This document shows positions 855-56,390 of a DNA stretch of 64,000 nt, piece by piece. Position 1 is the stretch's first letter. The number at the start of each line of letters is the position of its first letter. Source of the stretch: an uncultured Methanosarcinales archaeon (GTDB lineage: Archaea; Nanobdellota; Nanobdellia; Woesearchaeales; JAHWIC01); the NCBI GenBank assembly GCA_964447855.1, contig CAYUUH010000001.1, positions 369-64,368 on the forward strand, read 5' to 3'. The position numbers were made by a program, and so were the translations under genes. Under the pieces are notes generated by a model, which saw only the letters and a list, made by a program, of their open reading frames with translations, made no database searches and was not told the origin of the DNA.

Positions 855-903
855 AACAATATTTTTAATATGCAAAATATTATTAGTTTTATTTTAAAAA
901 ACT

Positions 904-5445: not shown

Positions 5446-5731
5446 ATTCGGAGACTTGATGAACAGCGTGATGGACGATATGGGTATGCCCGACTTTTGG
5501 AACCCCGTAGGGAGTTCTACCTATAACGGGAGGTGGGTTGATACAGACAAATATGATGTAGTGCCTAAAAAACAGTGGTATGTAGAGCAGGTCAAGAGGA
5601 TTGAAGAGGAGTTGTTCACGCTAGAGCGCAGGAGAGATGCCACGCTAGAGTACTACGAAAATCAAAAGAAGAGCCTTCTAGAGAAGAAGGAGAGGCTTGA
5701 ACGAGAAAAAGGAAAACAAGAGGGTGGCTAG
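5423..5731 (+). CDS. hypothetical coiled-coil protein
   Basis: 102-aa ORF with a charged C-terminus. Terminator follows. Confidence 0.45.
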   Translation: MTLIRKYRFGDLMNSVMDDMGMPDFWNPVGSSTYNGRWVDTDKYDVVPKKQWYVEQVKRIEEELFTLERRRDATLEYYENQKKSLLEKKERLEREKGKQEGG

Positions 5732-5754
5732 ATAGATTGCCGTTGCAGAAAGAG

Positions 5755-5782
5755 GGCAGAACTAAAAATTCTGCCTTTTTTA
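5755..5782 (+). terminator. intrinsic terminator (GGCAGAA/TTCTGCC stem followed by a T-run)
   Basis: agagggcagaactaaaaattctgccttttttatttg. Confidence 0.5.
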
Positions 5783-5818
5783 TTTGTTTTTGTCAAATCT
5801 TTGTTTTACATTTGCCCT

Positions 5819-6876: not shown

Positions 6877-6968
6877 TGGAGGAATAGTCGGGTCTGATCA
6901 TCCGATGAAAAGGATAAGTGTCGAGTCCTTTCCTCCTTTTTTTCGACACAATACAAAACGACACAAGC

Positions 6969-7484
6969 ATGAAAGAAATTAAGTTAACAAGGGGAATGGT
7001 TGCATTAGTAGATGACCGGGATTATGACTTCTTAATACAATGGAAGTGGCATGCCAATCCTAGTACTACGAATGGATGTTTTTATGCAAGAAGAACAATT
7101 AGGGTGGGAAAGGGGGTTAAGCGTATTTATATGCATAGGCTTATTATGCAGGCAGATAGTGGCATAAAAGTGGATCATATAGATAGGAATGGGCTAAATA
7201 ATCAAAGATCAAACTTAAGATTGTGTACACGCCAACAAAATACCTTTAATACAAATAACCGCAAAAGGAAGTCCCCTTATAAGGGAGTAAGCAAAAAGGA
7301 GGACTATGATAGAAAAAAACCATGGAGAGCGTGTTTTAAGGCAAACGGAAAGCAAATGCTTTTTGGACATTTTGAAACAGAAATAGAGGCTGCCATTTGT
7401 TATGATATAAATGTCTTAAAGTTTAGAGGAGAGTTTGCTGTTTTAAATTTCCCTGAGAGATATAAAAATGGAGTATATGAATAA
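6969..7484 (+). CDS. HNH homing endonuclease with a C-terminal AP2 DNA-binding domain
   Basis: VDHIDRNGLNNQRSNLRLCTRQQN is an HNH motif. YKGVS...WRA...GHFETEIEAAICYD...FRGEFAVLNFP is an AP2 domain. Paralogous to 52755-53225. Start moved to ATG 6969 (MKEIKLTRG), which aligns with the paralog's N-terminus. Confidence 0.8.
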   Translation: MKEIKLTRGMVALVDDRDYDFLIQWKWHANPSTTNGCFYARRTIRVGKGVKRIYMHRLIMQADSGIKVDHIDRNGLNNQRSNLRLCTRQQNTFNTNNRKRKSPYKGVSKKEDYDRKKPWRACFKANGKQMLFGHFETEIEAAICYDINVLKFRGEFAVLNFPERYKNGVYE

Positions 7485-8672: not shown

Positions 8673-9350
8673 ATGACCTTAGAAGACATTGACGGTAGTA
8701 GGTTTCTCTACGACCCCACAGCGAATGATTTAGTTAAGAGGCTGCAAGCCGATATTCCTGAGTTTGCTAACTATAAAGGAAAGATACCAAAGCAGAAGGT
8801 GTTCCAGTATATCATTCTGATGTATGACCCGTCATCCCCACTATGGCGAAATGTACTTGACTACTACGTGAGAAAGAGTACTTGCGCTGATATGGTTGGA
8901 TTTCAAAAGACCAAGGGGCAGTGGTCTAAAGAGGCAGAGGCTATTTTAATTGGAGAGGACTCGCAAGTGAACGACATGATAGTAGCCTACATAGCGCAAC
9001 TTGGGATGGTAGAGATGTATCAGCTTGTTGCATACCTTAGTCTACTTAGTTCTGAAACACGAAAGGCTATAGACTACAAAGGAGATAAGAACTCTATTGA
9101 CATCATCACTAAGACAGGAGATAAAATTAGGGAGCTGCTTAAAGTAGTGTTCAGGTCGGGGGAGTATGATGAGATAGCTCAGGTGCGCAAGGCTCTTTAT
9201 AGTAGACTTGAAAAAGAGAGGCTACGCATACGCCCAGAGGAAGTAGTTAGTATGATAAGTGAAGAAGGTGGACTCCCGCCAGAGTTTAATCCCTACGGTG
9301 ACTATAAAGTAGAAAAATCTAAGTTTGTTGGGGATGAAGCACCCTACTAA
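8673..9350 (+). CDS. hypothetical protein (by position could be a small terminase subunit; speculative)
   Basis: 225-aa ORF immediately upstream of, and overlapping, the 789-aa ORF. Confidence 0.35.
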   Translation: MTLEDIDGSRFLYDPTANDLVKRLQADIPEFANYKGKIPKQKVFQYIILMYDPSSPLWRNVLDYYVRKSTCADMVGFQKTKGQWSKEAEAILIGEDSQVNDMIVAYIAQLGMVEMYQLVAYLSLLSSETRKAIDYKGDKNSIDIITKTGDKIRELLKVVFRSGEYDEIAQVRKALYSRLEKERLRIRPEEVVSMISEEGGLPPEFNPYGDYKVEKSKFVGDEAPY

Positions 9351-15486: not shown

Positions 15487-15507
15487 CAGCCATTCCTAAA
15501 TAAGCAT

Positions 15508-15515
15508 TATCTTTG
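15508..15515 (+). promoter_or_regulatory. -7 box TATCTTTG within the conserved TTATCTTTGCATAAATAAAAG
   Basis: ATG at 15536. Confidence 0.5.
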
Positions 15516-15535
15516 CATAAATAAAAGCAAATTAG

Positions 15536-20437: not shown

Positions 20438-21361
20438 GTGAAATCAAACAGTAAAGCAATGAAAACATTCAGTGAAATCCTAGTACCGTTTCTTTCTGAG
20501 AAGGAAATCCAGCTAAAGAAGAAAAGCCTAAACGCATATAAGAATCAAACTAAAGTCTTTTGCGAGTGGCTGAACAGTCAAGGAAAACTTGATATCTCAA
20601 TTTGCGACATCAAGGAAGAAGAAGTATCGCAGTTCTTTCTTTACCTTGCGAGGGACAAAGACCTTGACCGTCCAACCTGTCAGAAGTACTACATAAGCAT
20701 TAAGTCAGTATTTTACTATGCTAAGAAGCGCAAGGAGATAACAGAACTGCCGTTTGACTTAGTGGTGTTCCCGTCAAAGAAAAGGGACTGCTCGGCACAG
20801 CTAATCCCGCAAGAGGCTATGAAGCTATTGTTTGAAGACATAAAAGAGAACGACTATCAACTCTTTCTAGCTTGCATGATTGAGTACTACTGCTTCATAA
20901 GGCCAGGTAATGAGATGAGAAACCTTAAGCCCACAAACTTTGATTTAAAGAGTGGCACGATACGCATTGACGCCTCGATAGCTAAGAATAAGAGAGCAAG
21001 AACAGTTACCATGCCCACACAGTTAATAGAGTACTGTAAAGAGTATGGAATAGATAAGGAGAACAGTAACCGCTATGTCTTTGGATGCAATAGGTACTTC
21101 GATACAAAGCCGGTATCAGAGAACATGCTAAGGTATAGATTTAATAGATTCAGGGATAAGCATAATATAAGCAAGGGGGTTAAGCTCTATAGTTTTAAGC
21201 ACCAAGGATGCACCACGCTTCACCAAACAAGGCTAGTATCTACCTTCGACCTGATGACACAGCTTGGGCATAGCAATCTTACAAGCACACAACACTACCT
21301 AAAGAAGGTGGCGGGTAATATTAACAGTGAGATAAGGAATAATTTTCCAAGTCCTATATAA
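20438..21361 (+). CDS. tyrosine recombinase / phage integrase family (XerC/D-like size)
   Basis: N-terminal SAM-like domain. AKNKRARTVTMP box, LGHSNLTSTQHYLKKV C-terminal box with the catalytic Tyr. The HxxR box reads KHQGC, so the second catalytic Arg appears to be absent. Confidence 0.6.
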   Translation: MKSNSKAMKTFSEILVPFLSEKEIQLKKKSLNAYKNQTKVFCEWLNSQGKLDISICDIKEEEVSQFFLYLARDKDLDRPTCQKYYISIKSVFYYAKKRKEITELPFDLVVFPSKKRDCSAQLIPQEAMKLLFEDIKENDYQLFLACMIEYYCFIRPGNEMRNLKPTNFDLKSGTIRIDASIAKNKRARTVTMPTQLIEYCKEYGIDKENSNRYVFGCNRYFDTKPVSENMLRYRFNRFRDKHNISKGVKLYSFKHQGCTTLHQTRLVSTFDLMTQLGHSNLTSTQHYLKKVAGNINSEIRNNFPSPI

Positions 21362-21365
21362 TTCT

Positions 21366-21373
21366 TATCTTTG
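21366..21373 (+). promoter_or_regulatory. -7 box within TTATCTTTGCATAAAATAAG
   Basis: 17 nt upstream of ATG 21390. Confidence 0.5.
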
Positions 21374-21389
21374 CATAAAATAAGTTATT

Positions 21390-21688: not shown

Positions 21689-21712
21689 TAAAACGATATT
21701 AAATATTATATT

Positions 21713-21720
21713 TATCTTTG
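21713..21720 (+). promoter_or_regulatory. -7 box within TTTATCTTTGCATAAAATAAG
   Basis: Upstream of ATG 21752. Confidence 0.5.
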
Positions 21721-21751
21721 CATAAAATAAGAGAAAGAAAAATTATAGATT

Positions 21752-24462: not shown

Positions 24463-24744
24463 ATGTCAAAACAACAAGATGCATTTAAAAGGTGTGATGA
24501 GATAAGCGATGAGCTTGAAGTTTTTTTTAATAGCTTATCTAAAAAGAATAAAAGAGAAATAGGAAAACTGATCTGCGGTCATATAGCTACGCTTTCGGCA
24601 GACCTTGACAAAAATATCTTTGATCCACTAAAGGTATTAAGTGAGGCGCAGAAAGACCTACAAGCTATCATAGCGGAAGAAGTAGATGGTCAGATAGAGA
24701 AGGAATTACTAGATTATGTTAATAAAACTAAGGATCAAAAATAA
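24463..24744 (+). CDS. hypothetical protein
   Basis: 93-aa ORF. Confidence 0.4.
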   Translation: MSKQQDAFKRCDEISDELEVFFNSLSKKNKREIGKLICGHIATLSADLDKNIFDPLKVLSEAQKDLQAIIAEEVDGQIEKELLDYVNKTKDQK

Positions 24745-24748
24745 TTCT

Positions 24749-24756
24749 TATCTTTG
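24749..24756 (+). promoter_or_regulatory. -7 box TATCTTTG
   Basis: attcttatctttgcactg. ATG at 24784. Confidence 0.45.
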
Positions 24757-24783
24757 CACTGAAAAACAAAAACAAGAAAGAAA

Positions 24784-25890: not shown

Positions 25891-25920
25891 CCCCCGACTT
25901 CGGTCGGGGTTTTGTGTTTT
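25891..25920 (+). terminator. intrinsic terminator (CCCCGAC-TTCG-GTCGGGG followed by TTTTGTGTTTT)
   Basis: cccccgacttcggtcggggttttgtgtttt. Confidence 0.6.
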
Positions 25921-25941
25921 CAGACATTCATAAATAAGAGT

Positions 25942-25949
25942 TATCTTTG
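25942..25949 (+). promoter_or_regulatory. -7 box TATCTTTG
   Basis: gagttatctttgcattg. Confidence 0.45.
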
Positions 25950-26032
25950 CATTGGGATAGCTAAGGTTGATCTCTTAGCGATAAGGACATGCCAACATCC
26001 TTCCCCATCTTTTTAGTTGGCGTAATTAAATT

Positions 26033-37682: not shown

Positions 37683-39017
37683 ATGGCAGATATCCTTTAT
37701 ACAGGTCGTGGTTTAGCGGCAAAGCTACCTGAAACAGGCAATACCATGCAAGGTCTTGTTAACTTTGTAGCTAGGGCTGAGGAAACGAAATTCAATGTGT
37801 TTCAGAAGAACAAGGATGCCTTCATGAAGATGACGGATGTAGACCCTGTAATGTTCTTAACAACAGCAAACCAAGAAGCACAAGCAAAGCTATTAGACGA
37901 CTTTAATAAAGAAGCAGCACAGATTTATAAGAACTCTGGTGGGTTTCCCTCTATGGAAGAGATGCAACAGATACAGGCTAAGAAGAACTACCTTGTGTCT
38001 GAGCAACAGAAGATGCAAGCTGACATGGAACAGGTCTTACTTGAGAAGGAAGTCATAGAGAAAGATAACGGAGTCAACTATGACCCACAAGAGTGGTATC
38101 AAAAGAAATATCAACCCTATATAGAGACAGGTAAATGGGATAAGACACCCATGGTTAAAAGAGCCAAGCCTATTGAGTCTGTTTTTAGAGGTAAAGTCAC
38201 TGGTGCGGGAGCTTATGAAGAACCTGACCCCGATAATCCCTCTAGATTACGTCAAACAAGCGCAAGCAAGAAAGATGTCGCCGTGAGAATAGCAGACACC
38301 ATCTTTGCAGATGAGTCCGTTAAAAGGCATGCTTTAGAGGAATGGAGGACATTGCCCGATTCAGAGAAAGAGCAGTATCTTAATGATGCCAATGGTGATG
38401 GCATGATTTCCGATGAAGAAAGGCAGCAAGGTGATGTACTTGTTAAAAGTCTTGACAACCCTATAATCAAATCTTACGTAGATAAGCATTGGGCAAATCT
38501 TGTTGATGTTAGGTTTACTAATAAGCAGAGACCCGCAAGTACGGGATCAGGTAAACCTACTATTTCTGATATAATAGGAGAGAAACGTGACATTGATCCT
38601 ATGTATGGGAATATAAGTAGACCTAACATCTATTCCCTTGGTGGAGACATGGCTATTACTGATATTCCTACTGCGGGTGCGAAGTTACTTGACGATACTG
38701 GTTCTTACGACTATAATCTGAGAGGAAATCCCGCAAAGGCATTTCTTAAAGACTACGATGCAGATAGAAATACTGTTATAGTTCAAGTTCCTTCAAAAGA
38801 CCCTGTTTCGGGAATAGACACAAAACAGCTAGTAGAAGTCCCCGTAAAGAATATATTAAGTAAAGTAAAGGATATTAAGGTGGTGGTTAATGGTGTTACT
38901 ACAACTATAGGTGCTTTGGTAGGAACGACAACAGCGACTAAGCCATCTTTCTTAGAATGGAAGAAGATTTCAGGTAATGAGAATAAGACCTTCAAAGACT
39001 ATACAGATGCCAGATAA
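37683..39017 (+). CDS. hypothetical virion protein
   Basis: 444 aa. Confidence 0.4.
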   Translation: MADILYTGRGLAAKLPETGNTMQGLVNFVARAEETKFNVFQKNKDAFMKMTDVDPVMFLTTANQEAQAKLLDDFNKEAAQIYKNSGGFPSMEEMQQIQAKKNYLVSEQQKMQADMEQVLLEKEVIEKDNGVNYDPQEWYQKKYQPYIETGKWDKTPMVKRAKPIESVFRGKVTGAGAYEEPDPDNPSRLRQTSASKKDVAVRIADTIFADESVKRHALEEWRTLPDSEKEQYLNDANGDGMISDEERQQGDVLVKSLDNPIIKSYVDKHWANLVDVRFTNKQRPASTGSGKPTISDIIGEKRDIDPMYGNISRPNIYSLGGDMAITDIPTAGAKLLDDTGSYDYNLRGNPAKAFLKDYDADRNTVIVQVPSKDPVSGIDTKQLVEVPVKNILSKVKDIKVVVNGVTTTIGALVGTTTATKPSFLEWKKISGNENKTFKDYTDAR

Positions 39018-42000
39018 GATATCCGAATTATACCAAGTCATTCCACAAGGAGCGTTCAAGGACGAGAATGAGTTCCGTAGTTATGTTACAGATGAAAATA
39101 AGCTAAAGGAGTTCTATTCTTTATTGCCACAGGGTTCATTTAAGGATGAGGGTGAATTTGTCGGATACTTTGGCGAAGGCTTAAAAAAAAAACAATTTTC
39201 TGTACAAGATTCTCTCTCTCCTGCGTCTGGCAAAGAGGAAATGTCATTCTTGGACGCATCAGGAAAGCCCTTAACTCCACAACAACCATTACCATCGGCT
39301 GAGAAGCCTAAAGAAAGCGGGTTTGTTCGGTTTCATAAAGATTTAGCAAGATCATTAGGTTCTGCGTCCCTAAGAGCTTTAGGCGGGATTACGGGAATAC
39401 CACAGTTTGCCAATAGAACCGTTTCTTCCTTCACCACAAGACCAATTATCAAGGCTATGGGGGGAACTGATGAGGATGCACGTCTCTATGCTGATGCGGT
39501 AATGGCAGCAACTCCATTAGGACAGGCGTCAGTAGGTGGTGAGCAAACCCAACAAAGGTTAAATAAAGAGGCTCAAAAGATTGAGGCTAAGATAAAGCCT
39601 ATTGAGGGTAATATAGTTAAAAATATCCAAGAGGGAGATTATGGGCAAGCAGGTGAACAGCTCGCAAGAGGGGTTGTTCAGTCATTACCGTATCTAGCTA
39701 TGACATTCGCCACATCAGGATATGGAACACCCGCCGTACTTGGGACTATAGGAGCTACGGCAGCTTCTCAGCAGTATAGTGAGTTAGATGATAAAGTTCC
39801 CGAAGGAAAGAAAATAGTTAATTCATGGCTCTATGGGGGATTTGAGGCAGCAGGTGAGTTATTTACGGCTAGTTTAGCTGATGGTATAAAACTCGCATTT
39901 AAAAGCGGATTAAGTGACGTAGCTAAGGATAATCTTATTAAGGGGGCTTCCAAAACCATTTCTAAGGCATTTTTAGGAGAGGGAGCATCAGAGGCAGCCA
40001 CACAGATAGGTCAGAACCTTACTGATATAGTAACAGGGACAGCACCGGAACGAAAGTTATTTGATAATGTTATTGATGCTGCTCTTATTGGGGGAGTATC
40101 GGGCGGTGGACTTGGGACACTTCAGATAGGTGCTTCACTTACGGGAAGAGCAATGGCGTCCGATAAAGAGGTTAAGCAAGTACAAGATAACGTCAATCAG
40201 CAAAAAGTCTTAATAGACCAAATAGACCAAACAGATAGTGACCCTGTAAAGAACGCACTCAAAAGAAGTATAAAAGACTTAAGGGTGCAGGCTGATGAGG
40301 TTATGGATACTAACTATGAGTTAGCCACTAAACTCTCTCCTGAAAAACAAGCACAAGTAGCAGAACTTTACTCGGTTTGGAATGAATTACAGTCAAAAAT
40401 TGACAATAAAGAAGTCATAGAGCAAGAAATTCCCGCTTTAGAAAATACCATTAAGGGAATTAAGGATCAAATTCAGGGCATCAAGGATGATTTGGTTACT
40501 CAGTTAGAAGAAGAAGCTAGGGCAAAGGAAAGCGGAGAACCCGTAAAAAAAGAAACAACCGCAGAACCTAAGGAGGTGGTGGCAGAACCAACAGTAGAAC
40601 AAACCGAAACTCCTATTGAGAAACCACAAAAAGCACCCTATATTGAAATTAATTCAGAAAATATTAGCGAAATTGAAAATAATGAATTAACTTCGCTTCG
40701 TGAACAGGGTGCAACAGAAGAAGAAATAGCATCCGTACAAGAGAATGTAAACTTAATAAAAGAATATCTAGATGAGCTACAAAGACCTGATAGAGAAGAA
40801 GGCGCAGGAGGCGAGGGAGTACTTCGCACAGAAGGACAAGAAAACATTGGAGGCATTACCGAAGCAGAAACAGGAGGAGATGTTAGCGCATATCCAACAG
40901 TTTTGGCAGGAAGAAGAGAGCTCAACAGAGCAGCCAAGTTAACCCCTGAAGAACAAGTTACACAAAGGCTTGCTCCTACAGGAGAGAAATCTAATCTCTC
41001 TGACAAAAACTTTGACTTAGTGCGCACACCGGAGTTCAAGGCTCGGTTTGGTGATTGGCAGAAAGGCGAAGGTAGTCTAGTCCTTGATAGAAATGGAGAG
41101 CCGATGGTGGTCTATCATGGTGCACCTCAGATTTACCCCGAAGGTGTAGACCCACAAAAGACAGCATCAAAGAAATCTTACTTTACAGGGAATAAAGAGG
41201 CAGCTAGAGTTTATGCTCGGTTTAGAAATAAACAACCTGTTATCTATGAAGGTTTCCTTGTAGTGAATGAGTCTGACCTAGAACAAGGTAATCAGATTGA
41301 TAAGCTACCCGGATTTGAAGATACCCACCAAGAATATCTTACGACAAGAAAAGAGCAGTTCATCCCTACAAAGATAACTAAGGTGGGAAAAGTAAAGAAG
41401 GAAAAGAAGGAAGAAACCGCCCAAAGCGAAGATTCTACAGTACCATTAGTAACTGATAAGAAAGTAGAAGACTTTAGCGGGGAACAGCCAAGCATCCTTA
41501 ATCAAGAAACTGATTTACTTGGGAGTCCAAAAGAAGAATGGATGGAGGATTTCTATGATAAGACAGCAAAGAATATCCTAGGGGAATTTAATGGGGATTA
41601 TGCAAGGGCTCGTGAAAATGCAAAGATGAGAGAGGCTTCTTATGCGCTTACCAATAATCAAGGTGTTGCTGATGTTATAAATAAAAGAATAGCTGATAAG
41701 AAAATACAAGTTGAAAAGGCACTTAAAGATGGTAAGTTTCAGAAAGCCATAGCCGATGGCCGCATGACCGCCAATGATGCCAAGACTATTATTGAAAGTG
41801 CGGGACTTGAAGTGCCAAGTGATATTATTGAGACACAGCCCCAAGAGTCTGTTCAAAAACCAACAGAGGTCACAGAAGAGGAACAAGTACCTATTATTGA
41901 ACAAACGGAGTCAAAAGAAGCAATTTCAGCCCCGATAACCGAAGACCAAGGTAAAATACCACCGCCACCACAAAAGCCCGTTAAAGAGGCTGAAAATGCG

Positions 42001-45000
42001 CCAGAAGAGAAAACTCGCACAAGAGAGATCGGCGCAAAGGTTGTAGAGAGTGCAAATGTCAAGCAAGAGGTTAAAGATGCCTTGTTAGAGAATGGCATAG
42101 ACTACGTTCCGAGGGGACAGAAATATACGCTATCAGAACTACAGGAGATAGTTGATATGTTCTCTACCAATGAAGATGGTCTTGATAAGTTAGCACAGAC
42201 GGTCTATGATGTTAAAAACGATATTAAGGGTGATACGAGGATAACTCTTAATGTCTATATAGCCGATAAGTATTCTAAGTTACTTGATGAGGCTACCGAC
42301 CCCAAGACAAGAGAAAAATATCGGAATAAACTAGCAGATGCCTTTATTTTTGGACAGGAGTTTGCTACGGAAGCAGGGCAAACAGTAGAGGCACTAAAGA
42401 GGTGGAGAGAACTTCTTAGTAGAGACCCCGAATCAATTATTGCCATAAGGAAACGTCAGCAGTCTAAATATAATGAGTTTGCCTTAGCGGGTATGGAAGC
42501 AGATATTAAATCCGCTAAAGAGATACTTGACTCTATTGTTAATACCGATGAGTTTAAGCAGATAATAGAATCAGAGGTAAACAAAGAGATAGATAAGATA
42601 GCTAATAAGAAGTATGGTGAGGTAGATAAGAAGAAGATTAATGATTTCTTTGACGGGCTTCTTGTTAAGAACGATAAGGCTTTTGATGCTACGGTAGGTA
42701 TTCCTATTGCTGTTTATAACGGAGCTGTACTTGTTATTAAGAAAGCAGTATTGGCTGGCGTAGATGTAACTAACGCTATAAAGCAAGCAGTAGATTACAT
42801 AGACGAGTGGTATAAGAAGAACTATGCCGAGGGTAAGATACCTTCTCCTGAGTGGAATAAGGACGACTACATGGCTCAAATGGACAAACAACTTAAGCCA
42901 CTGAGCAAGAAAGTCAAGAAAGTTAAGCATAAAGTTACTAAAGCGGTAGAGGATAGTTTAGTTGATAAGATTTACGCTAAGATGTCTACTGCGACTAAAC
43001 CACAACTTAGACGCCTCGTAAGGGAATATATAGCCACACTAGATACTGAAGGAGCAATAAGTGAGCAGAGATTTAAAGATTTATTTGCTAAAGCTATAGG
43101 TCTTGACGTATTAACGGCAGAGGATGAACAGAAGATAAGAGAAACAGCCTTGTCGCTAAAGAACTCTACCAAGGTTGCGGAAAAACTCGTTGCGAAATTT
43201 AAAGAACTCGTTGCAGAGACAGACAATGCTAAGATTAAGCAATTAGAAGAAGAAGTTAAGGTACTTAAGAAAGAGGCTAACAAAGCTAAGTTTGAGGCAC
43301 TAAAGGCTGCAAGGAAACTTGACGGACTGATGACGGATAAGGCTACGTTAGGCAGTACGCTTCATACCTTAATACAGGGTAACTTACTTACAGTGCAGTC
43401 CATGGTGAGTAACGTAGTTGGTAACGCTGTATTCTTGCCGGTAAGAAATCCTTCTTATATGGTTGCTAGTGGACTTGATTTTATAGTTTCTAAGTTATCT
43501 TCAGCATACACTCCACTACTCCAAGACCCATGGGTTAAAGCTAATCCGAGAGTACGAAGGTTAATTGAAAGTCTACCAACACCAAGTAGAGAGTATGACT
43601 ATTTTGCTTCAGTGAGAGGATATTGGTATGGTATGCCTAAGGGATTAGAGGAAGGTATAAGGCAGATATGGGCGGGTACGTTACCTGAAGATCAGTATCA
43701 GCAGTATATTGGACAGGGACTTAATCCATGGAAGGCAGCGTTAAGGCTAAGAGACCAATTAACGGGCAAAGAACAGATAGCTTTTGATACTGCTATGGCT
43801 AACTTCCTTGAAGCATTTCCTACTACCTATATGGCGGAGGGTTTCTTTAGGACACTTAACCTTGGTGATAAGCCATTCAGAAGGGCAGCAGAGAGGTCTA
43901 GGCTTGAAGAACTTGCATCCCTAAAAGGTTTAAAAGGCAATCAAAGAGCATCTTTTATAAATAATCCCGACCCCGATTCAGTAGAGGAGGCACGTAAAGC
44001 AGGGGATGTAGCGGTATATCAGCAAGACACTGTTATTTCTGAGATGTTTTCTTGGCTTAATAAGAGGATAAACAGAGTTGCTGCACAGAAGGCTACAAAG
44101 AGAACGTCAGTCATTGTTTCTACCGTTGGGGCATTACTTAAGGCAACACAAGCACCCTACGTTAAAACGCCTGTAAACCTTATTGGAGAGGCAGTGGATT
44201 ACTCTATACCATCTCTATCTCTTTTCAGGGCTTTATATTACGCCAAGGAAGGCAATAAGAGAAAGTCTTACGAATATTTTGGCAAGGCAGCAGTAGGTTA
44301 CATGCTTATGAACATAGCTTTTTTCCTTATAAAAGAAGGATTACTCAGCCCTCCAACAGATGACGATGAGAAGATAAGACAAGCACAGTATGACGCCAAA
44401 CCTGGATATAGCCTAAACCTTGACGCACTTTGGAGAAGGATTGATCCGTTTGATAACGCCAAAGGTAACTCTGAGTGGAAGGATAAAGATCAGGTTATGA
44501 ATATTCAGAGGTTGGGTGTGTTTTCTATGATACTTATGGGTATGTCTAAAGCCTATGCCGAACTACCTCCTGATGAGATGCAAAAAGAAATAACCTTTCA
44601 ACAAAAGGGGGAGTATGGACTTAGGATGATACCAACAGTAGTGGGTGCTTCATTAGAACAGTCTTTCTTATCAGGAACAGCATCGGGTATCAAGGCTTTC
44701 ACAGAAGGTGGCCCTGCATTTGACAGATGGGCTATAAGCACCTCTAAAGCACTCTCGGCAGTAATCTATCCCAATACACTTGCACAGATAAGTCAGGTAT
44801 TCTTTGACGATAACTACATACGTGAGGTTAAGGATATGTATAGCCGTGATGAGAAGTTTAAGAAACAGATCATCAATACCTTTAAGGATAGAACATTCAT
44901 GGGTAAGGACTTACCCGCTAAGATTACTCTTTGGGGCGAGAAGGTTAATAGAGTACCCGAAGGAGAGTCGTGGGCACACGTAATGTTTGATGTAACAAGG

Positions 45001-45642
45001 TCGGTAGAGTACCAAAAGAGTTCCTTTGGCGTGAGAATGTTCGAGTGGTGGGAGAGATATCGTTTCATTGACGAAACAGAAGCTAAGAAGATATTACCAT
45101 CTATTCCGAGTGCTACTAATACAGTGGGATGGGACGATAGAAATATGACATCTAAAGAGGTTGAAGAGTTTCAGATAGCGGTAGGTCAGAGAAGAAAATC
45201 ATACGTGGAGAACATAATGAACTCAGCCGAGTGGCAAGATATGTCTGATGAGGATAAGATAGTTGAACTTGAAAGAATTTATCGCACTCAGGCGTCTAAG
45301 GTAAAAGCCGGTATGTTCATGCTAGACGTTATTAAGGCAGACAATAAAGTGTTTAAGTTCCTTGACGAGAATGACCTTATACCAATACCAACAAAGACTG
45401 TTACTATAAAACACCAAAGAGATAAGACAAAGCTCGACCCTGAGCAGACAGCAGAATACTATTCTAATGTTCAGAGACATTTTGTAGAGAGAATAAATAA
45501 CTCAGGATTAGCCGAGAGAGAACTAACCGATGACGAAAAGAGCAAGGAAAGGTTGATTAAGCAGGTTAATGGTCATTGGGACAGAGCAAAAGAAATAGCA
45601 AGCAGGGATTGGATTACTTCTAAAATCAGGACAACTAAATAA
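38977..45642 (+). CDS. giant virion-associated protein (candidate ejected cargo or tape-measure-like protein)
   Basis: 2221-aa uninterrupted ORF. N-terminal tandem LxxxxPQGxFKDExEF repeats, an acidic coiled-coil centre and a large α/β C-terminal region. No polymerase motifs recognised. Confidence 0.55.
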   Translation: MRIRPSKTIQMPDKISELYQVIPQGAFKDENEFRSYVTDENKLKEFYSLLPQGSFKDEGEFVGYFGEGLKKKQFSVQDSLSPASGKEEMSFLDASGKPLTPQQPLPSAEKPKESGFVRFHKDLARSLGSASLRALGGITGIPQFANRTVSSFTTRPIIKAMGGTDEDARLYADAVMAATPLGQASVGGEQTQQRLNKEAQKIEAKIKPIEGNIVKNIQEGDYGQAGEQLARGVVQSLPYLAMTFATSGYGTPAVLGTIGATAASQQYSELDDKVPEGKKIVNSWLYGGFEAAGELFTASLADGIKLAFKSGLSDVAKDNLIKGASKTISKAFLGEGASEAATQIGQNLTDIVTGTAPERKLFDNVIDAALIGGVSGGGLGTLQIGASLTGRAMASDKEVKQVQDNVNQQKVLIDQIDQTDSDPVKNALKRSIKDLRVQADEVMDTNYELATKLSPEKQAQVAELYSVWNELQSKIDNKEVIEQEIPALENTIKGIKDQIQGIKDDLVTQLEEEARAKESGEPVKKETTAEPKEVVAEPTVEQTETPIEKPQKAPYIEINSENISEIENNELTSLREQGATEEEIASVQENVNLIKEYLDELQRPDREEGAGGEGVLRTEGQENIGGITEAETGGDVSAYPTVLAGRRELNRAAKLTPEEQVTQRLAPTGEKSNLSDKNFDLVRTPEFKARFGDWQKGEGSLVLDRNGEPMVVYHGAPQIYPEGVDPQKTASKKSYFTGNKEAARVYARFRNKQPVIYEGFLVVNESDLEQGNQIDKLPGFEDTHQEYLTTRKEQFIPTKITKVGKVKKEKKEETAQSEDSTVPLVTDKKVEDFSGEQPSILNQETDLLGSPKEEWMEDFYDKTAKNILGEFNGDYARARENAKMREASYALTNNQGVADVINKRIADKKIQVEKALKDGKFQKAIADGRMTANDAKTIIESAGLEVPSDIIETQPQESVQKPTEVTEEEQVPIIEQTESKEAISAPITEDQGKIPPPPQKPVKEAENAPEEKTRTREIGAKVVESANVKQEVKDALLENGIDYVPRGQKYTLSELQEIVDMFSTNEDGLDKLAQTVYDVKNDIKGDTRITLNVYIADKYSKLLDEATDPKTREKYRNKLADAFIFGQEFATEAGQTVEALKRWRELLSRDPESIIAIRKRQQSKYNEFALAGMEADIKSAKEILDSIVNTDEFKQIIESEVNKEIDKIANKKYGEVDKKKINDFFDGLLVKNDKAFDATVGIPIAVYNGAVLVIKKAVLAGVDVTNAIKQAVDYIDEWYKKNYAEGKIPSPEWNKDDYMAQMDKQLKPLSKKVKKVKHKVTKAVEDSLVDKIYAKMSTATKPQLRRLVREYIATLDTEGAISEQRFKDLFAKAIGLDVLTAEDEQKIRETALSLKNSTKVAEKLVAKFKELVAETDNAKIKQLEEEVKVLKKEANKAKFEALKAARKLDGLMTDKATLGSTLHTLIQGNLLTVQSMVSNVVGNAVFLPVRNPSYMVASGLDFIVSKLSSAYTPLLQDPWVKANPRVRRLIESLPTPSREYDYFASVRGYWYGMPKGLEEGIRQIWAGTLPEDQYQQYIGQGLNPWKAALRLRDQLTGKEQIAFDTAMANFLEAFPTTYMAEGFFRTLNLGDKPFRRAAERSRLEELASLKGLKGNQRASFINNPDPDSVEEARKAGDVAVYQQDTVISEMFSWLNKRINRVAAQKATKRTSVIVSTVGALLKATQAPYVKTPVNLIGEAVDYSIPSLSLFRALYYAKEGNKRKSYEYFGKAAVGYMLMNIAFFLIKEGLLSPPTDDDEKIRQAQYDAKPGYSLNLDALWRRIDPFDNAKGNSEWKDKDQVMNIQRLGVFSMILMGMSKAYAELPPDEMQKEITFQQKGEYGLRMIPTVVGASLEQSFLSGTASGIKAFTEGGPAFDRWAISTSKALSAVIYPNTLAQISQVFFDDNYIREVKDMYSRDEKFKKQIINTFKDRTFMGKDLPAKITLWGEKVNRVPEGESWAHVMFDVTRSVEYQKSSFGVRMFEWWERYRFIDETEAKKILPSIPSATNTVGWDDRNMTSKEVEEFQIAVGQRRKSYVENIMNSAEWQDMSDEDKIVELERIYRTQASKVKAGMFMLDVIKADNKVFKFLDENDLIPIPTKTVTIKHQRDKTKLDPEQTAEYYSNVQRHFVERINNSGLAERELTDDEKSKERLIKQVNGHWDRAKEIASRDWITSKIRTTK

Positions 45643-45646
45643 GAGT

Positions 45647-45654
45647 TATCTTTG
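45647..45654 (+). promoter_or_regulatory. -7 box TATCTTTG
   Basis: gagttatctttgtaaac. ATG at 45683. Confidence 0.45.
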
Positions 45655-47019: not shown

Positions 47020-47195
47020 ATGATTTTCCATATCCTGAATGTGAGAACTGCTGGACTTTAGCGGACTGCAAGCACGCAGAGAAGGGTATCGGTCTTGAAT
47101 CAGAGTTACCGCCCGACAACTGTCCTAAGCCTATGGTTATCATGAGAAGGACTATGCACAAGAGAAAGTTAGATAGAAATAAAAGATATTCATAA
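47010..47195 (+). CDS. hypothetical small Cys-containing protein
   Basis: 61 aa. Confidence 0.3.
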   Translation: MRTDDFPYPECENCWTLADCKHAEKGIGLESELPPDNCPKPMVIMRRTMHKRKLDRNKRYS

Positions 47196-47635
47196 TGTTA
47201 TACCGACCGCAGTTTTTCCACTTGACGGAACTCGTCTGTAAAGAAGTGTACGAGAAGTATGGTGATATGGCTTACCTGTTCTTAGATGAGAAAATTGTCA
47301 TCACAATAGATCAGATAAGGCGTATGCTGAATAAGCCTATTACTATTAATAACTGGTACGAAGGTGGTCAGTTTAGCCAAAGAGGATTAAGGTGTAATAC
47401 CTGTTCCCTCGTAAAGGAAAAGACATTAAAGAATCAGTTATACCTTTCTGCCCATGTGTTAGGACTAGCGGTAGACTTTAATGTTCAGGGAATGACTGAT
47501 GGTGAGGTGGCGATATGGATAGCTTACAATAAGGACAAGCTACCTTATAACATGAGAATAGAAAGAGACACGGTGGGATGGACTCATCTTGACTGCTTCA
47601 ATAACGGCAATAAATTAACTTTTTTCAATCCCTAA
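47195..47635 (+). CDS. endolysin, peptidase M15 family (zinc D-Ala-D-Ala carboxypeptidase / L-Ala-D-Glu peptidase fold)
   Basis: SAHVLGLAVDF (SxHxxGxAxD) and GWTHLD zinc-ligand motifs. Flanked by small transmembrane ORFs. Confidence 0.65.
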   Translation: MLYRPQFFHLTELVCKEVYEKYGDMAYLFLDEKIVITIDQIRRMLNKPITINNWYEGGQFSQRGLRCNTCSLVKEKTLKNQLYLSAHVLGLAVDFNVQGMTDGEVAIWIAYNKDKLPYNMRIERDTVGWTHLDCFNNGNKLTFFNP

Positions 47636-47637
47636 TT

Positions 47638-47865
47638 ATGTTATCATTAGAAAACTTAAAGAAACCATCAGACAGAAAGTGGAAGGCAGTAGCAGACTTC
47701 TTTCTTTACTCGCTTCCCCTCTATCTTGGTGTGATATTAGCCCTACCTTTAGCAGACAATACCAAGGTATGGATAAACTTTGGTATAAGCATGGCTATTG
47801 TAACACTGAAAAGTTTGTCAAAGTTCACAACTGAAGAAGCAAAACAAGATGGCAATAACGGTTAA
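47638..47865 (+). CDS. holin-like two-transmembrane protein
   Basis: 75 aa with two hydrophobic helices, directly after the endolysin. Confidence 0.4.
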   Translation: MLSLENLKKPSDRKWKAVADFFLYSLPLYLGVILALPLADNTKVWINFGISMAIVTLKSLSKFTTEEAKQDGNNG

Positions 47866-48568
47866 AACACGTACAATAGTCATAGGAATCATTTTAAGCC
47901 TATTTCTGACATTCTTTGGTGGATGGTACTATGGATACATCCGAGAGAAGAAAGCCTCTCAAATCGCACAGGAAAGCCTTAAAACAGAGATTCAGAAGCT
48001 ATCAGTCCAAATCAACGATACAGAGTATCAACTGACCAAGACCGAACAAGAACTTATCACCGAAAGACAGTTACGCAAGCAAGATATCATTGACAAGGAA
48101 ACTCTCAGAGCGATAAATGTTAAGCACGTCACAGAAATATCTAAGTTGAAGTTCAGAATAGATACTTTGCTTGAAGATGTCAACCACAATGGCAATATAA
48201 TCATAGTAAGAGATACTGTTGTAACTCAGTTGTCGCAAAAAGCGATCCTACTGCCATTCAGCTTTGCAAAGAAAGATAAATGGCTTGACCTTAAGGGGAT
48301 GTTTGATGACAACGGTAAGCTAGGCGTGGACTTAAAAATGGACATGGAAGTTGATGTCATTACCGGAACAGCTAAGTCAGGCGAGAGAACTGTGAATATA
48401 TTGACAGACAATACCTATATCGGCGTTATTGGCGTGAGATCGTATAAGACAGATGTAGAGAAGCCCAAACGATGGGGTATTGGGCCTAGTCTGGGATATG
48501 CCGTTTGTCGGAACGGATTGTCGCCATTTGTCGGAGTCAGTGTTTCATATTCGCTGATACAATTCTAA
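47849..48568 (+). CDS. spanin-like protein (N-terminal transmembrane segment, coiled coil, β-rich C-terminus)
   Basis: 239 aa. Last gene of the rightward block. Confidence 0.3.
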   Translation: MAITVKTRTIVIGIILSLFLTFFGGWYYGYIREKKASQIAQESLKTEIQKLSVQINDTEYQLTKTEQELITERQLRKQDIIDKETLRAINVKHVTEISKLKFRIDTLLEDVNHNGNIIIVRDTVVTQLSQKAILLPFSFAKKDKWLDLKGMFDDNGKLGVDLKMDMEVDVITGTAKSGERTVNILTDNTYIGVIGVRSYKTDVEKPKRWGIGPSLGYAVCRNGLSPFVGVSVSYSLIQF

Positions 48569-48586
48569 AATAGATTAAAAGCGATA

Positions 48587-48610
48587 GGGGCTGATTTTCG
48601 CCCCTTTTTG
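48587..48610. terminator. intrinsic terminator at the convergence point (GGGGC/GCCCC stem followed by TTTTTG)
   Basis: ggggctgattttcgcccctttttg. Confidence 0.5.
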
Positions 48611-48668: not shown

Positions 48669-49751
48669 TTATTTAATATACTCACTATCACTCCCCACTG
48701 AGTTAATCATTAAATGCACATCAAAGGATAGCACCGGAACAGATGCGTTACCTCCTGTGTTGTAAGGACAAGCACCCGCAAACTCTGTACTAGCATTTGT
48801 CGTATCCCTATATATTCTGAATTGAACTATATCTGATAGTGTTGTCCCTACGGGGACTGCTATTGCTGCTGCGTCAGATATCTGATGTATAGTTCCCGAT
48901 GTATATGGGAATATTAGGTCTGTACACTTTAGCTTAGTCCATGCCGTAGTCTTGGCACTACCGTTCTTCTGCCATCTATATTCTAGAAGTAGATTAGGTG
49001 TATAGTTCTTAGCTTGAAACCAGTGTATGTGAGGGTATATTGACGCTGTTAAGTCTCTGTCGTGGTTTAACTGAACATTCTTATAAAGGAAGTCTGCAAG
49101 TGCGGGGTTTACATTATAAGTAGCGTTATAAACAAGGTCTACTGTAGACTCTGCAAGGTTTATAGATACACCTGCTCCGTTAGACTGTAAGCCGAGTGCG
49201 TCCCCTAATTCATCACGCCATGGTCTTGCGTCTCCCGCCATAGTCTGATGACCATTGCTGTTTATATCTGTATAATTAACGCTAGTACCAAATCTCCCAC
49301 CCGTGGCAGTTATTGAATGAGTGCCAAGGTCTACATTCTGTAATGCACCCGTGTAAGGGACGTAGCCTATTCCACTGTCATCCCCTGAAAAGACTAACTC
49401 AAGAACTGTAGATATTAGTCCATTACCTGATTCTAATGCTACTCCTACTTTAAGATAAGGGTTATCTGCTGATTTAGCTATCTTACAAGTACCAAGACTT
49501 ACGTTGTCATTGCTCTTTGCCCCTCGTAATATATCATCCTTCAAGGTGTTGCCCTGAACTAAGACTTTAGCGGTGTCTCCTATGGTAGCTATCTTGCACT
49601 TTTGGCGGTATGGAACGGCTTCGGTCACACAGCCTATAGCACGGCTTGAATTAGGGATAGTGTACTCAAACGCATTGGGATTGGAACTTGATATCGAAAC
49701 CAAAGCCCCGACACGGCTCACAGATTTGGTATTATTGATGAGTGTTATCAT
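48669..49751 (-). CDS. fibre-like structural protein (Gly/Ser/Thr/Asn-rich)
   Basis: 360 aa with β-type composition, transcribed leftward. Confidence 0.45.
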   Translation of the reverse strand: MITLINNTKSVSRVGALVSISSSNPNAFEYTIPNSSRAIGCVTEAVPYRQKCKIATIGDTAKVLVQGNTLKDDILRGAKSNDNVSLGTCKIAKSADNPYLKVGVALESGNGLISTVLELVFSGDDSGIGYVPYTGALQNVDLGTHSITATGGRFGTSVNYTDINSNGHQTMAGDARPWRDELGDALGLQSNGAGVSINLAESTVDLVYNATYNVNPALADFLYKNVQLNHDRDLTASIYPHIHWFQAKNYTPNLLLEYRWQKNGSAKTTAWTKLKCTDLIFPYTSGTIHQISDAAAIAVPVGTTLSDIVQFRIYRDTTNASTEFAGACPYNTGGNASVPVLSFDVHLMINSVGSDSEYIK

Positions 49752-49887
49752 TGGTACAAAGATAAGGCTTTTTGGCGACAGCGCATAGCTCCCCCTAAAG
49801 CCTAACTTGATTGCTGATTAGTTTATTCTGTTGTCTGTGTTATAGTTTATTGTGTTACTGATCGGTGGTCTTAGGCGGGTCACTCGC

Positions 49888-50003
49888 TCACTCCTCTCTC
49901 TGGGTTGGTAGATTGCCCCCCAAACCCCCCACAGAGATTATTCTGTAGGAGCTACCAACCCGTCGCTTCGTCGTTTCGCTTCATTATTCCCGTCGTGTCA
50001 TTC
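49888..50003 (-). repeat. Copy B of the structured element (10-bp stem GGGTTGGTAG/CTACCAACCC at 49902-49961)
   Basis: See copy A at 438-545. Lies 140-250 bp upstream of the start codon at 49751. Confidence 0.55.
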
Positions 50004-50265
50004 TGCGGTTACACGCCCCCACTACCAATCTCACCGAGCCTATAGACTAATACTTTTCATACGTGATTCTAAATTCCGTAACCTCAGTTATGATGACTTA
50101 TGCTTGCTGAGGACAATAAGCCCCATCTAAAAAGGGTGAGTCCCTAAGAAGAAGGGCTCAGAGTTAATGTTACGCAGAGGTAAGTATTAACACCTTCTCC
50201 TTTACGGGACTCGTGTTTTTTAAATCTTTGCTTTCTTGGTAACATAACTCTGAGTTAAATCACCA

Positions 50266-50273
50266 CAAAGATA
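50266..50273 (-). promoter_or_regulatory. Minus-strand TTATCTTTG -7 box
   Basis: + strand caaagata within ccacaaagataagc. Confidence 0.4.
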
Positions 50274-50296
50274 AGCATTATTTTTAATATGTATTT

Positions 50297-50545
50297 TTAC
50301 TCACTATTGGGGCGAACATAAAGGACATCTTCTTTCATATAGTACGTCCCTTTTGGGTGCGTATGCCTAACAACATAGGCAGCGATACTTATAGCAATTA
50401 AAGCAATCACAACACAGGTACGGGTGAGTTTCTTCTTACATATAGCACAGGCAAAGTAGTAAAACATAAGTGTTACGCCCGCTAAAGATAGAGCCACTAA
50501 AGCCCATCTTAGAATAATATGATATAGAAGAGATAAGTCGTTCAT
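50297..50545 (-). CDS. small integral membrane protein (3 transmembrane segments)
   Basis: 82 aa, hydrophobic. Confidence 0.4.
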   Translation of the reverse strand: MNDLSLLYHIILRWALVALSLAGVTLMFYYFACAICKKKLTRTCVVIALIAISIAAYVVRHTHPKGTYYMKEDVLYVRPNSE

Positions 50546-50961: not shown

Positions 50962-51003
50962 AAGTCAAATGTAAAACACATATTTGACATTTCCAAATTT
51001 ATT

Positions 51004-51189
51004 TCAAGAAATATTGTATGTGATGCCATAATGTCTGCATATTTCTTTAGCATCCACGCCAAAGTTAGCACTTATAAGATTAACTATTCTTTCATTAAGA
51101 AGGTTAAAGGCATGTAGGTCGTCCATAAAGCTAACTATTTTCTCTTCTTCTGTCATTTTGGTGTTCCTTTCTCTTGTATGCGTTTCCAA
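51004..51189 (-). CDS. hypothetical small acidic protein
   Basis: 61 aa. Confidence 0.3.
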   Translation of the reverse strand: METHTRERNTKMTEEEKIVSFMDDLHAFNLLNERIVNLISANFGVDAKEICRHYGITYNIS

Positions 51190-55685: not shown

Positions 55686-55742
55686 AGCTTTAAGTTTTGA
55701 TTACACTGACAAATGTAAAACAGATAAATGAGAAATCCAAAT

Positions 55743-56390
55743 TTATTTTAAGAAATCTTTTATAATATCGTCATGGAGTTTATACGATTTGGTCATTCCC
55801 CATATTGTTTCTTTAGGACTTAGGTAGCCTACTATGCCCGCTCTATGCCCTGCAACCATAAGTTTGACTCCTTGCCGATGACAGGCACGGCTGAATAAGA
55901 CGTCAGCCATATTCGGATGAGGAAAATCTTGCATTGATAATTTGACCATTGATGTATCGAAGCAGAGAACCCCCGTTCCTGCGATGTCTATGACATGATC
56001 CCCGACCACAGAATTTAAGCATCTGTAGTTCTCTTTGAAGTATTTGAAGCCTCTCGGAGGTCGGTCATACCTTTTACCGTGCAGTGACACCGGACAGTTG
56101 TATTGAGCAACCTTCTCCCGCAAGAGCGAAAAGAACTCATCAGTATAAACTAGATCGTCATCACAAATGAAGACTAATCCTTCGACTTCATTGATAAACT
56201 CAAACTTATGAGCGTCTCCCTTACTATTGTCACACATCTTGAAAGTCACATTTGGAATGTCAAGTTCAGGAACAACAGCGTAGTTATTTAAAGCCACATA
56301 GATATGGTCTACATGAGGGGATATTGACTGCAATACAACAGGCAATAGGTTTCTTCTGTTTCCAAGGCTTGCTAAGTGTGCTGTTATCAT
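55743..56390 (-). CDS. glycosyltransferase (GT-A-like, DxD motif ICDDDL)
   Basis: 215 aa. Confidence 0.45.
   Translation of the reverse strand: MITAHLASLGNRRNLLPVVLQSISPHVDHIYVALNNYAVVPELDIPNVTFKMCDNSKGDAHKFEFINEVEGLVFICDDDLVYTDEFFSLLREKVAQYNCPVSLHGKRYDRPPRGFKYFKENYRCLNSVVGDHVIDIAGTGVLCFDTSMVKLSMQDFPHPNMADVLFSRACHRQGVKLMVAGHRAGIVGYLSPKETIWGMTKSYKLHDDIIKDFLK

Follow-up and report, generated by a model that had tools for sequence, protein, structure and literature searches.

Two homologous units in one phage

The stretch of DNA considered here, hereafter the window, is 64,000 nucleotides (nt) long (GenBank contig CAYUUH010000001.1, positions 369 to 64,368) and is part of a 72,964-bp contig (P0001) of a tailed phage. 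At positions 49752-50296, upstream of a minus-strand gene encoding a protein of 360 amino acids (aa; 48669-49751), lies a gap that carries a hairpin element, the subject of this report. The initial annotation held that this gap is non-coding, that its segment 49888-50003 is the same element as one at 438-545, and that the gap also contains a minus-strand promoter box and a second small hairpin. All of this was borne out. There is no minus-strand open reading frame (ORF) of 60 aa or more in the gap, and the sole ORF that overlaps it, on the plus strand at 49573-49788, has no homologue at the loci of L095 and L098, two related phage contigs described below. Alignment shows true homology between the copy at 438-545 (copy A) and that at 49888-50003 (copy B). 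The promoter box, at 50266-50273, is TATCTTTG, a -7 element of the Bacteroidetes type (TAnnTTTG), and copy A has an almost identical one upstream, at 847-854. The small hairpin, CCTCAG...CTGAGG, lies at 50082-50112 on the minus strand and is the helix called P3 below.

On the plus strand the two copies share one layout: CTGGGT comes before the first stem arm, GCCCCCC-NNN-CCCCCCA and a little inner hairpin come next, and the second, complementary arm is followed by CCCGTCGC. No other place in the window has the exact C6-N3-C6 motif, which lies at 466-480 and 49916-49930. When up to two mismatches are allowed there are 8 matches against 1.29 expected, a number that was reached in none of 100 shuffles. 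The outer stem covaries between the copies, complementarity being kept (GGGTGGTGG/CCACCACCC in A, GGGTTGGTAG/CTACCAACCC in B). A covariance model of the domain (R2, see below) was applied to the window with its filters disabled; it returns two copies and no more, both on the minus strand, at 427-567 (E 1e-36) and 49881-50012 (121 bits, E 1e-31), and the next best match has an E-value of 0.7. The functional strand is the minus strand, which corrects the initial annotation, and the motif there reads G6-N3-G6. Within a non-coding transcription unit on that strand, the hairpin (49902-49964) forms the principal helix of a conserved 3' domain.

On that strand the homology between A and B spans about 550 nt, from promoter through tail. 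The phage has two paralogous units that have diverged from each other, unit A (about 427-876) and unit B (about 49878-50292). In each, a promoter (CATATTAAAAATA..TTATCTTTG) is followed by 250-330 nt with several hairpins and then by a 3' domain of 130 nt; behind the hairpins the order is a block GUAUSAAAAGYAUUAGU, a purine-rich linker with AUGAAG, the main hairpin and a purine-rich tail. From the predicted start to the end of the conserved tail a unit measures some 380-420 nt, and an A/C-rich spacer of about 100-150 nt then separates it from the promoter of the next gene. In unit B this spacer (49766-49877) is G-poor and holds no hairpin-plus-U terminator; A and L098 have an A-rich equivalent.

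A search with the large terminase (TerL) led to related phages, and two uncultivated contigs among them carry one orthologous unit each. L098 is a 54.9-kb JGI contig (Ga0619418_10160353) whose TerL (P0122) is 68% identical to that of the window, and L095 a 73.8-kb ENA contig (ERZ27247358 k141_53425) with a TerL (P0126) that is 64% identical. In L098 the unit occupies 5632-6076, where blastn matches the promoter (5632-5665) and a further 266 nt at 73% identity (5822-6072); in L095 it lies at about 5373-5790, the domain at about 5645-5790. Both units are on the TerL strand, about 4 kb upstream of TerL, an orientation inverted relative to the window, and both sit in non-coding gaps, with the shared promoter core ahead and another promoter behind. 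Just downstream of the L098 unit is an SSB-like gene (6241-6711, plus strand) with an acidic ...DLPF tail and a match to phrog_4932 (E 0.001); just upstream, at 5180-5255 on the minus strand, is a tRNA-Met-like stretch called by neither ARAGORN nor Rfam. L020 and L026, whose TerL are 56-59% identical, have no unit within 10 kb upstream of TerL. The contig of L094 (TerL 95% identical) stops short of both unit regions, as do the short contigs of relatives at 64-65%.

The promoter core CATATTAAA..TATCTTTG is common to all four units and stands 290-330 nt before the main hairpin, H3. That of unit A (847-876, minus strand, TTTGCATATTAAAAATATTGTTTATCTTTG) is of the full host type, with TTTG, 18 nt and TATCTTTG. 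The promoter of unit B (50266-50292, minus strand, ACATATTAAAAATAATGCTTATCTTTG) is nearly identical to it; there TATCTTTG follows a conserved ACATATTAAAAATAATGCT, and the -33 TTTG is missing. Near-identical promoters lie at 5636-5665 in L098 and 5373-5402 in L095, and the -33 and -7 elements are both present in units A and L098. Conservation is limited to this minus-strand promoter, and no plus-strand promoter is common to copies A and B. The genes that follow the units carry separate promoters of their own and are mutually unrelated: an ORF that starts at 267 and exits the left end of the window for A (promoter 289-320, minus strand, TTTG...TACATTTG), the SSB-like gene for L098 and a 170-aa gene for L095.

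No conserved ORF lies inside the units, where ORFs are short and not conserved. Each unit has its own promoter and no conserved coding capacity, as is expected of a gene for a structured RNA. Short sense-strand ORFs do begin 18-36 nt into the units (45 aa in A, at sense positions 31-168 of the reversed segment 290-845; 42 aa in L098, at 5705-5833; 33 aa in B), those of A and L098 sharing the ending ...NTS, and in all four units a stop codon comes 2-10 codons past the invariant AUGAAG. Both features are probably incidental to the RNA structure.

A long hairpin, P1, opens all four units, with arms that are wholly different from one unit to the next (UUGUAUUUGAUG/CAUCAAAUGCAA in A, GAAUUGACAA/UUGUCAAUUC in L098, CUCAGAGUUAUGUUAC/GUAACAUUAACUCUGAG in B, CCUUGUAGAGGAUUG.../...CAAUCUUUUACAAGG in L095); between A and L098 it contains compensatory pairs. 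In unit B, on the minus strand, it spans 50157-50254 (arms CTCAGAGTTATGTTAC / GTAACATTAACTCTGAG). P2, P3, P4 and P5 follow in identical order in A, L098 and B, the middle of L095 being more diverged. In the 5' part of unit A (568-846, minus strand) these helices lie at 735-824 (P1), 673-705 (P2), 637-663 (P3), 590-618 (P4) and 575-588 (P5). P3 has counterparts by position that differ in sequence, GGTGGT/ACCACC in A and AGTGG/CCACT in L098. P4 of unit B (50043-50071, minus strand) pairs UAGA with UCUA around a conserved loop, GAAAAGUAUUAG, and corresponds to AUUACUA/UAGUAAU in A and AUUGC/GCAAU in L098, around ...CAAAAG.AUUAG.

Fold and covariation of the 3' domain

The four 3' domains can be drawn with a common fold, made of two hairpins, H2 and H3, and a helix that closes the domain. 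H2 is a hairpin of 4-6 bp whose sequence is different in each unit; in unit B it is CGUGU...ACACG (49994-50015, minus strand), the first helix of the domain, and four of its six pairs show a two-sided change. It is followed by AUGAAG, in the purine-rich linker, which is invariant in all four units (49979-49984 in B, minus strand). H3 comes next (49902-49964 in B, minus strand). Its outer stem, of 7-10 bp, reads GGGUUGGUAG/CUACCAACCC in B, where the hairpin also has a GAC loop and a 14-nt 3' bulge; the outer stem differs yet stays complementary in L098 (GGGGTAGAGG/CCTCTACCCC) and L095 (GGGGCAC/GTGCCCC), six of nine pairs being changed on both sides. In the inner stem a C/U-rich strand pairs with the first G run, with many G-U pairs (CUCCUACAGA/UCUGUGGGGG in B, within the same interval). 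The 3' side of H3 holds a bulge of 12-15 nt in which the second G6 run is unpaired: GUUUGGGGGGCAAU in B (49912-49925, minus strand), UAAGGGGGGCUGUAU in A and L098, AGGGGGGAUAGU in L095. The purine-rich tail is AGAGAGAGGAGUGAGCGAGUGACC in B (49878-49901, minus strand) and CUGAGAGAARCGAUUUGAG in A, L098 and L095, and in these three it folds back to pair with the 5' linker. The closing helix of linker and tail is short, and its interruptions, GAC facing NGA and GA facing GA, are loops in which tandem sheared G-A pairs could form. In unit A the corresponding elements, on the minus strand, are H2 at 545-563, H3 at 451-514, the G6 bulge at 460-474 and the tail at 427-450. A pseudoknot between the P4 loop and the 3' tail was considered and dropped, as it fits A and L098 only.

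Covariation was assessed on four copies from three genomes, with two alignments that both lean toward structure. MAFFT alignments of the domain set the stems out of register, and an alignment made by hand and one based on a covariance model were used instead. The model, R1, was built from copy A alone and served to align B, L098 and L095; R2 is the model rebuilt after that alignment. R1 recovers the three other copies at E-values from 9e-6 (copy B, 36 bits) to 5e-14, and nothing else in the 276 kb searched beats E 2.9. In the R1 alignment 95.1% of the cells are paired, against 74.8% in shuffles, and 15 of 29 pairs are changed on both sides, against 6.5; none of 500 shuffles attains the observed value by any measure. 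When the partners were slid by 1-3 columns, pairing fell to 40-50%, with 2-3 two-sided pairs. In the hand alignment 105 of 107 cells are canonical and 18 of 30 pairs compensatory. The covariation of H2 and of the outer stem is plain from the raw sequences, despite the structure-leaning alignments. Compensatory changes occur in at least four helices although the copies are only about 60-75% identical; the helices have been kept by compensatory substitution among homologues, as in structured RNAs.

The same data bear on the strand. The pairs are canonical in 95.1% of cells in the minus sense and in 84.5% on the complement, with 12 G-U cells, and the 3' domains fold at -40 to -44 kcal/mol in the sense direction against -27 to -31 for the complement. 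Folding z-scores of the hairpin alone (-3.5 and -2.3 for the minus strand, -3.4 and -1.8 for the plus strand) are uninformative in this respect. The minus strand is favoured because the G-U pairs, the folding energy and the direction of the conserved promoter agree. A plus-strand reading, with C6-N3-C6 in a loop, was rejected on two counts, the lack of any conserved promoter other than that of the minus strand and the G-U pairs, which suit the minus sense.

Competing readings of the unit

Both loci have a non-coding unit that is conserved and begins with a promoter, and constraint on its sequence maintains its minus-sense helices. With moderate confidence, and from sequence comparison, we take it to be an autonomous gene for a phage-encoded structured non-coding RNA not previously described. 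An autonomous RNA is suggested because the unit has a dedicated strong promoter and a large conserved structure, because a second promoter stands before every downstream gene, and because these genes are unrelated to one another. In such a scheme host RNA polymerase would start some 250-330 nt upstream of the hairpin, and P1-P5, H2 and H3 would form while the RNA is being transcribed. Closure of the 3' domain would come from Watson-Crick pairing between the 5' linker and the 3' tail, both purine-rich, with the tandem G-A loops (GAC facing NGA) in between. Transcription would stop within, or the RNA be trimmed back from, the unstructured, A/C-rich and G-poor stretch behind the domain, a plausible region for Rho entry or trimming, its 3' end being produced by Rho-type termination or by 3' exonucleases while the closed domain stays as a protective end. 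The single-stranded, invariant G6 bulge and the G-A loops would be candidate contact surfaces for a putative partner, which might be a protein, some C/U-rich RNA or a second molecule of the same RNA.

Several points weigh against this interpretation. The covariation comes from only four copies in three genomes, the model alignment being fitted to the structure and the other made by hand. The folding z-score of unit B as a whole is unexceptional (-1.7 sense, -2.7 antisense), and conservation is poor in the middle of L095 and in the tail of B. The start, end and stability of the RNA have all been deduced from sequence, and its partner and target are putative only. Finally, no intrinsic terminator follows the domain, so that read-through, with the unit as a cis leader, is also compatible with the data.

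More familiar identities were sought for the hairpin and for the unit. An intrinsic terminator was rejected, there being no terminator-like site at either copy and no U tract in the tails behind H3 (AGAGCUGAGAGAAACGA, AGAGAGAGGAGUGAGCG). A pair of attL/attR repeats was discarded too, for the copies share no identical core (their longest identical run is 13 nt, inside the promoter) and phage-type promoters flank copy B on both sides. Nor was there a sign of a diversity-generating retroelement (DGR) acting on the fibre-like gene next to copy B: no repeat family involves 48669-49751, and no reverse-transcriptase domain was found among the ORFs scanned, which were part of those of the window. At gathering thresholds Rfam 15 matches only a tRNA in the whole window. 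With relaxed thresholds it returned nothing for 49700-50350 (E <=10), a tRNA and sub-threshold noise for 1-1300 (E <=10) and nothing for L095 and L098 (E <=1). The unit matches no Rfam 15 family, including GOLLD, ROOL, 6S, tmRNA, RNase P, HEARO and the riboswitches.

As far as searched, the unit has a narrow distribution, with two copies here and one in each of two relatives. GenBank phages gave no match for units A, B or L095. Scans of viral contigs, metagenome contigs and GTDB genomes with patterns derived from A and B returned chance matches alone, namely poly-G runs, high-GC coding sequence and Clostridia genes; the metagenome scan was too narrow, its pattern demanding ACCCAGAG, which is absent from L098 and L095. 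A tail pattern found nothing in viral contigs, and a promoter pattern found ordinary Bacteroidetes promoters and zero units. Hairpins with GCCCCCCGATCCCCCC in L002, L005 and L006 were likewise judged chance pattern matches; R2 misses L002 and L006. These hairpins, with GCCCCCCGATCCCCCC in the loop (2841-2869, minus strand, in L006), belong to an unrelated integrated element. The L006-type hairpin lies upstream of a 553-aa ORF, the same element has an integrase-like ORF, and two of the three copies are at contig ends.

The best placed of the alternatives, possible though rather unlikely in our estimation, is a cis-acting RNA leader. The nascent H2-H3 structure would provide either antitermination or anti-pausing in the manner of HK022 putL/putR, or a processing or stabilising site, and transcription would pass through the A/C-rich stretch, untranslated and sensitive to Rho, to reach the genes beyond. 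HK022 put works on its own, in the nascent RNA, to suppress both pausing and termination (PMC9378689). The presence of two homologous copies in this phage, each behind its own promoter and ahead of genes on the same strand, would suit such a function, as would the absence of a terminator between the domain and the next gene. In L095 and L098, moreover, the units are on the terminase strand about 4 kb upstream of the terminase genes, and in L095 all called genes downstream of the unit share its strand. A put site is about 70 nt long and has two hairpins. The conserved, helix-rich part of the unit is about 400 nt, far beyond that size, and a separate promoter always intervenes between the unit and the downstream gene, which is different in every case. 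According to R2, no unit stands at the head of the long plus-strand structural block of this phage. No likeness to a put site was seen, although no test was aimed at put, and no Rfam family matched, the presence of a put family in Rfam not having been checked.

A replication origin that works through an R-loop appears quite improbable. A non-coding transcript made from the promoter would, through its G6-N3-G6 runs and purine-rich flanks, stay paired to the C-rich template as a persistent RNA-DNA hybrid or as a hybrid G-quadruplex; transcription would halt there and a primer be left, as happens at mitochondrial CSB II or with ColE1 RNA II. The non-template strand does have two G6 runs, with a dedicated promoter some 300 nt ahead of them; those of L095, G5-A-G6, resemble CSB II. 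The RNA-like strand has strongly purine-rich flanks with an A-rich tract after them, and nothing inside the unit is coding. The gene next to the unit in L098 is SSB-like. However, a covarying C/U strand pairs with the first G run, and the other covarying helices favour a folded RNA. ColE1 RNA II is also folded, so the covarying helices are not decisive here. The two copies lie near both turning points of the cumulative GC skew, but these coincide with switches of gene orientation, and in L095, with almost every called gene on a single strand, the skew shows no sustained shift at the unit. No replication initiator, iterons or AT-rich unwinding element was identified. The CSB II mechanism itself is described in PMC3488243 and PMC4176368. 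More broadly, the unit might be a self-sufficient RNA device of Bacteroidetes phages, either a put-like element that reprograms RNA polymerase without proteins or a CSB II-like primer element; we consider this an unlikely, tentative proposal, which if true would make it the first such mechanism in phages of this phylum. Cis action on RNA polymerase, or priming of replication by the RNA, if true, would extend the mechanisms of HK022, ColE1 and mitochondria to a new phylum.

The initial annotation had proposed that the hairpin times the expression of the gene it precedes, seen as an additional receptor-binding fibre transcribed convergently with the lysis cassette. The arrangement is as described, with an endolysin (47195-47635), a spanin-like gene (47849-48568) and the minus-strand gene opposite; between them, at 48586-48605, is a bidirectional intrinsic terminator with a U tract. 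The gene may plausibly encode a fibre-like protein. The protein of 360 aa has a disordered or extended N-terminal half and a C-terminal domain (residues 150-360) that AlphaFold models as a beta-sandwich with pLDDT >90. The weak fold matches of the model are carbohydrate-binding modules, Cry toxin domain III and tailspike chains in the PDB, and collagen-repeat, C1q-domain, tail-fibre and Mtd-N proteins in BFVD; there is no Pfam or PHROG match. Most of its 223 database relatives share just the C-terminal 200 residues or so. That domain also terminates a 1233-aa ORF in L008, occurs among large ORFs of 675-886 aa in L104 and comes after RecT-type modules in other phages. It is reasonable, on the predicted structure, tentatively to regard the protein as fibre-like and probably glycan-binding.

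Control of this gene by the element is a different matter, and we think it very unlikely. Copy B is indeed the nearest structured element upstream of the gene on its strand, and no terminator lies between the two. Nevertheless, the unit precedes unrelated genes in A, L098 and L095, and the hairpin is just one part of a unit of about 400 nt, whose own promoter lies 250 nt upstream of the hairpin. The gene for its part has a separate -7 box, TTATCTTTG, at 49757-49764 on the minus strand, directly ahead of its ATG. R1 and R2 found no unit in any of the scanned contexts of homologues of the gene (L007-9, L027-30, L034, L035, L103-104 and L107-111), and the unit would therefore not seem to be a cis-regulatory leader linked to the fibre-like gene family in relatives. 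A regulatory role directed at the fibre-like gene in particular is not supported. The closest full-length relatives of that gene have an ORF of 126-173 aa at the equivalent place, of which the gap in the window holds no remnant. The phages of these relatives (L027, 19345-19907; L034, 12862-13403) have a different conserved non-coding gap of about 550 nt, with blocks CCCCTACCC, GGCAGGGGGGCGGGTACGC and GCTCACTTTGG; it matches neither R1 nor R2 and may be another non-coding RNA or an origin. A hairpin beside a fibre-like gene is easily filed as its regulator, a trap in annotation that the lack of linkage in relatives corrects.

Least credible of all is a repeated promoter-plus-hairpin cassette without RNA function, either a recombination substrate (like the PeSL of T4-type phages) or a remnant of duplication: the units do lie at module boundaries, and the segment with unit A and an 86-aa gene (1313-1573), whose homologue adjoins the unit in L098, is inverted with respect to TerL between the window and L098, but compensatory changes in at least four helices indicate selection on pairing beyond shared ancestry, and A and B lack a long identical core for crossover.

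Genomic setting and known systems

The phage that carries the two units has its large terminase at 9325-11694 and its portal at 15536-17887, its endolysin and spanin-like gene extending over 47195-48568. A 2221-aa protein is encoded at 38977-45642 on the plus strand, with an ADP-ribosyltransferase (ART-PolyVal) match at residues 704-833 (28.2 bits, below the Pfam cut-off of 31.2). The nearest deposited phages, of Flavobacterium and Cellulophaga hosts, reach only about 23% TerL identity; the lineage is therefore uncultivated and poorly sampled. Promoters of the phage are of the Bacteroidetes form, TTTG...TAnnTTTG, and include two repeated families. The first is long and found on both strands (TTTG..TGTCAAA..GTTTTACATTTG; 289-342, 5765-5814, 50966-51019 and 55710-55763). 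The second, AAATAAnnnTTATCTTTGCA, stands before the portal gene and several other plus-strand genes of the structural block (15498-15526, 21356-21384, 21703-21731, 24739-24767, 25910-25952 and 45647-45654). The two probably mark two temporal classes.

Unit A is about 290 nt from a tRNA-Met gene (CAT; 1146-1217, plus strand) on the opposite strand, which has its own plus-strand -7 box at 926-933, back to back with the promoter of unit A. Between that box and the tRNA, at 976-1043 on the plus strand, there is a sub-threshold Rfam match to FopS, a Bacteroidetes sRNA (27 bits against a gathering threshold of 56, E 0.12). A block for sugar or polysaccharide biosynthesis lies inside the phage at 56992-63083 on the minus strand, with genes for a radical SAM/B12-binding enzyme, a UDP-GlcNAc 2-epimerase, a Polysacc_synt_2 dehydratase, an RmlD-like reductase, a family 2 glycosyltransferase and an NAD epimerase; a GtrB-like glycosyltransferase is encoded at 5801-6859. 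The plus strand also carries an HNH endonuclease gene upstream of the terminase genes (6918-7484) and a tyrosine recombinase of the integrase family in the middle of the structural block (20438-21361). L094 has an integrase too, plus a GIY-YIG endonuclease.

Intergenic hairpins that are repeated within one phage genome recall intrinsic terminators and the RNase III hairpins of T7-type phages. The present hairpins differ from these in their purine-rich tails without a U tract, which the terminator at 48586-48605 does have, and in their position within a longer conserved unit with its own promoter. With CSB II (PMC3488243, PMC4176368), and likewise with ColE1 RNA II, the unit shares a promoter-driven non-coding transcript, G6-type runs on the RNA-like strand a few hundred nucleotides downstream and a folded RNA; the difference is that one G run is held here in a covarying duplex. 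Like HK022 putL and putR, which act as RNA (PMC9378689), the units are two homologous structured elements in one genome, located downstream of promoters and leading into genes, with stems kept by compensatory change. Unlike put, about 400 nt are conserved and a second promoter precedes the next gene.

The closest parallel in kind is with GOLLD and ROOL, RNAs of phages and prophages that are often found near tRNA islands (PMC12286853), and the resemblance is one of analogy. These too are phage-encoded, non-coding, multi-helical RNAs of several hundred nucleotides, of unknown function and often near tRNA genes. In GOLLD the 3' region is conserved and the 5' region variable, and a Met-tRNA adjoins one known example (PMC12286853); conservation is likewise highest in the 3' domain of the present units, of which A is close to tRNA-Met. 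The unit is nevertheless not a member of either family, whose Rfam models do not match it. Its RNA would be shorter, at about 400 nt, it occurs twice in one genome, and it is known from only three genomes of Bacteroidetes-type phages. It lends itself to study, with a clear promoter, two diverged paralogues for comparison, an invariant exposed G6 bulge and tandem G-A loops, which, to judge from the sequence, may resemble a binding platform. Structured phage RNAs of this size class, GOLLD and ROOL among them, are rare and of unknown function, and the unit described here, from poorly studied phages of the Bacteroidetes type, is a candidate for a new family among them.

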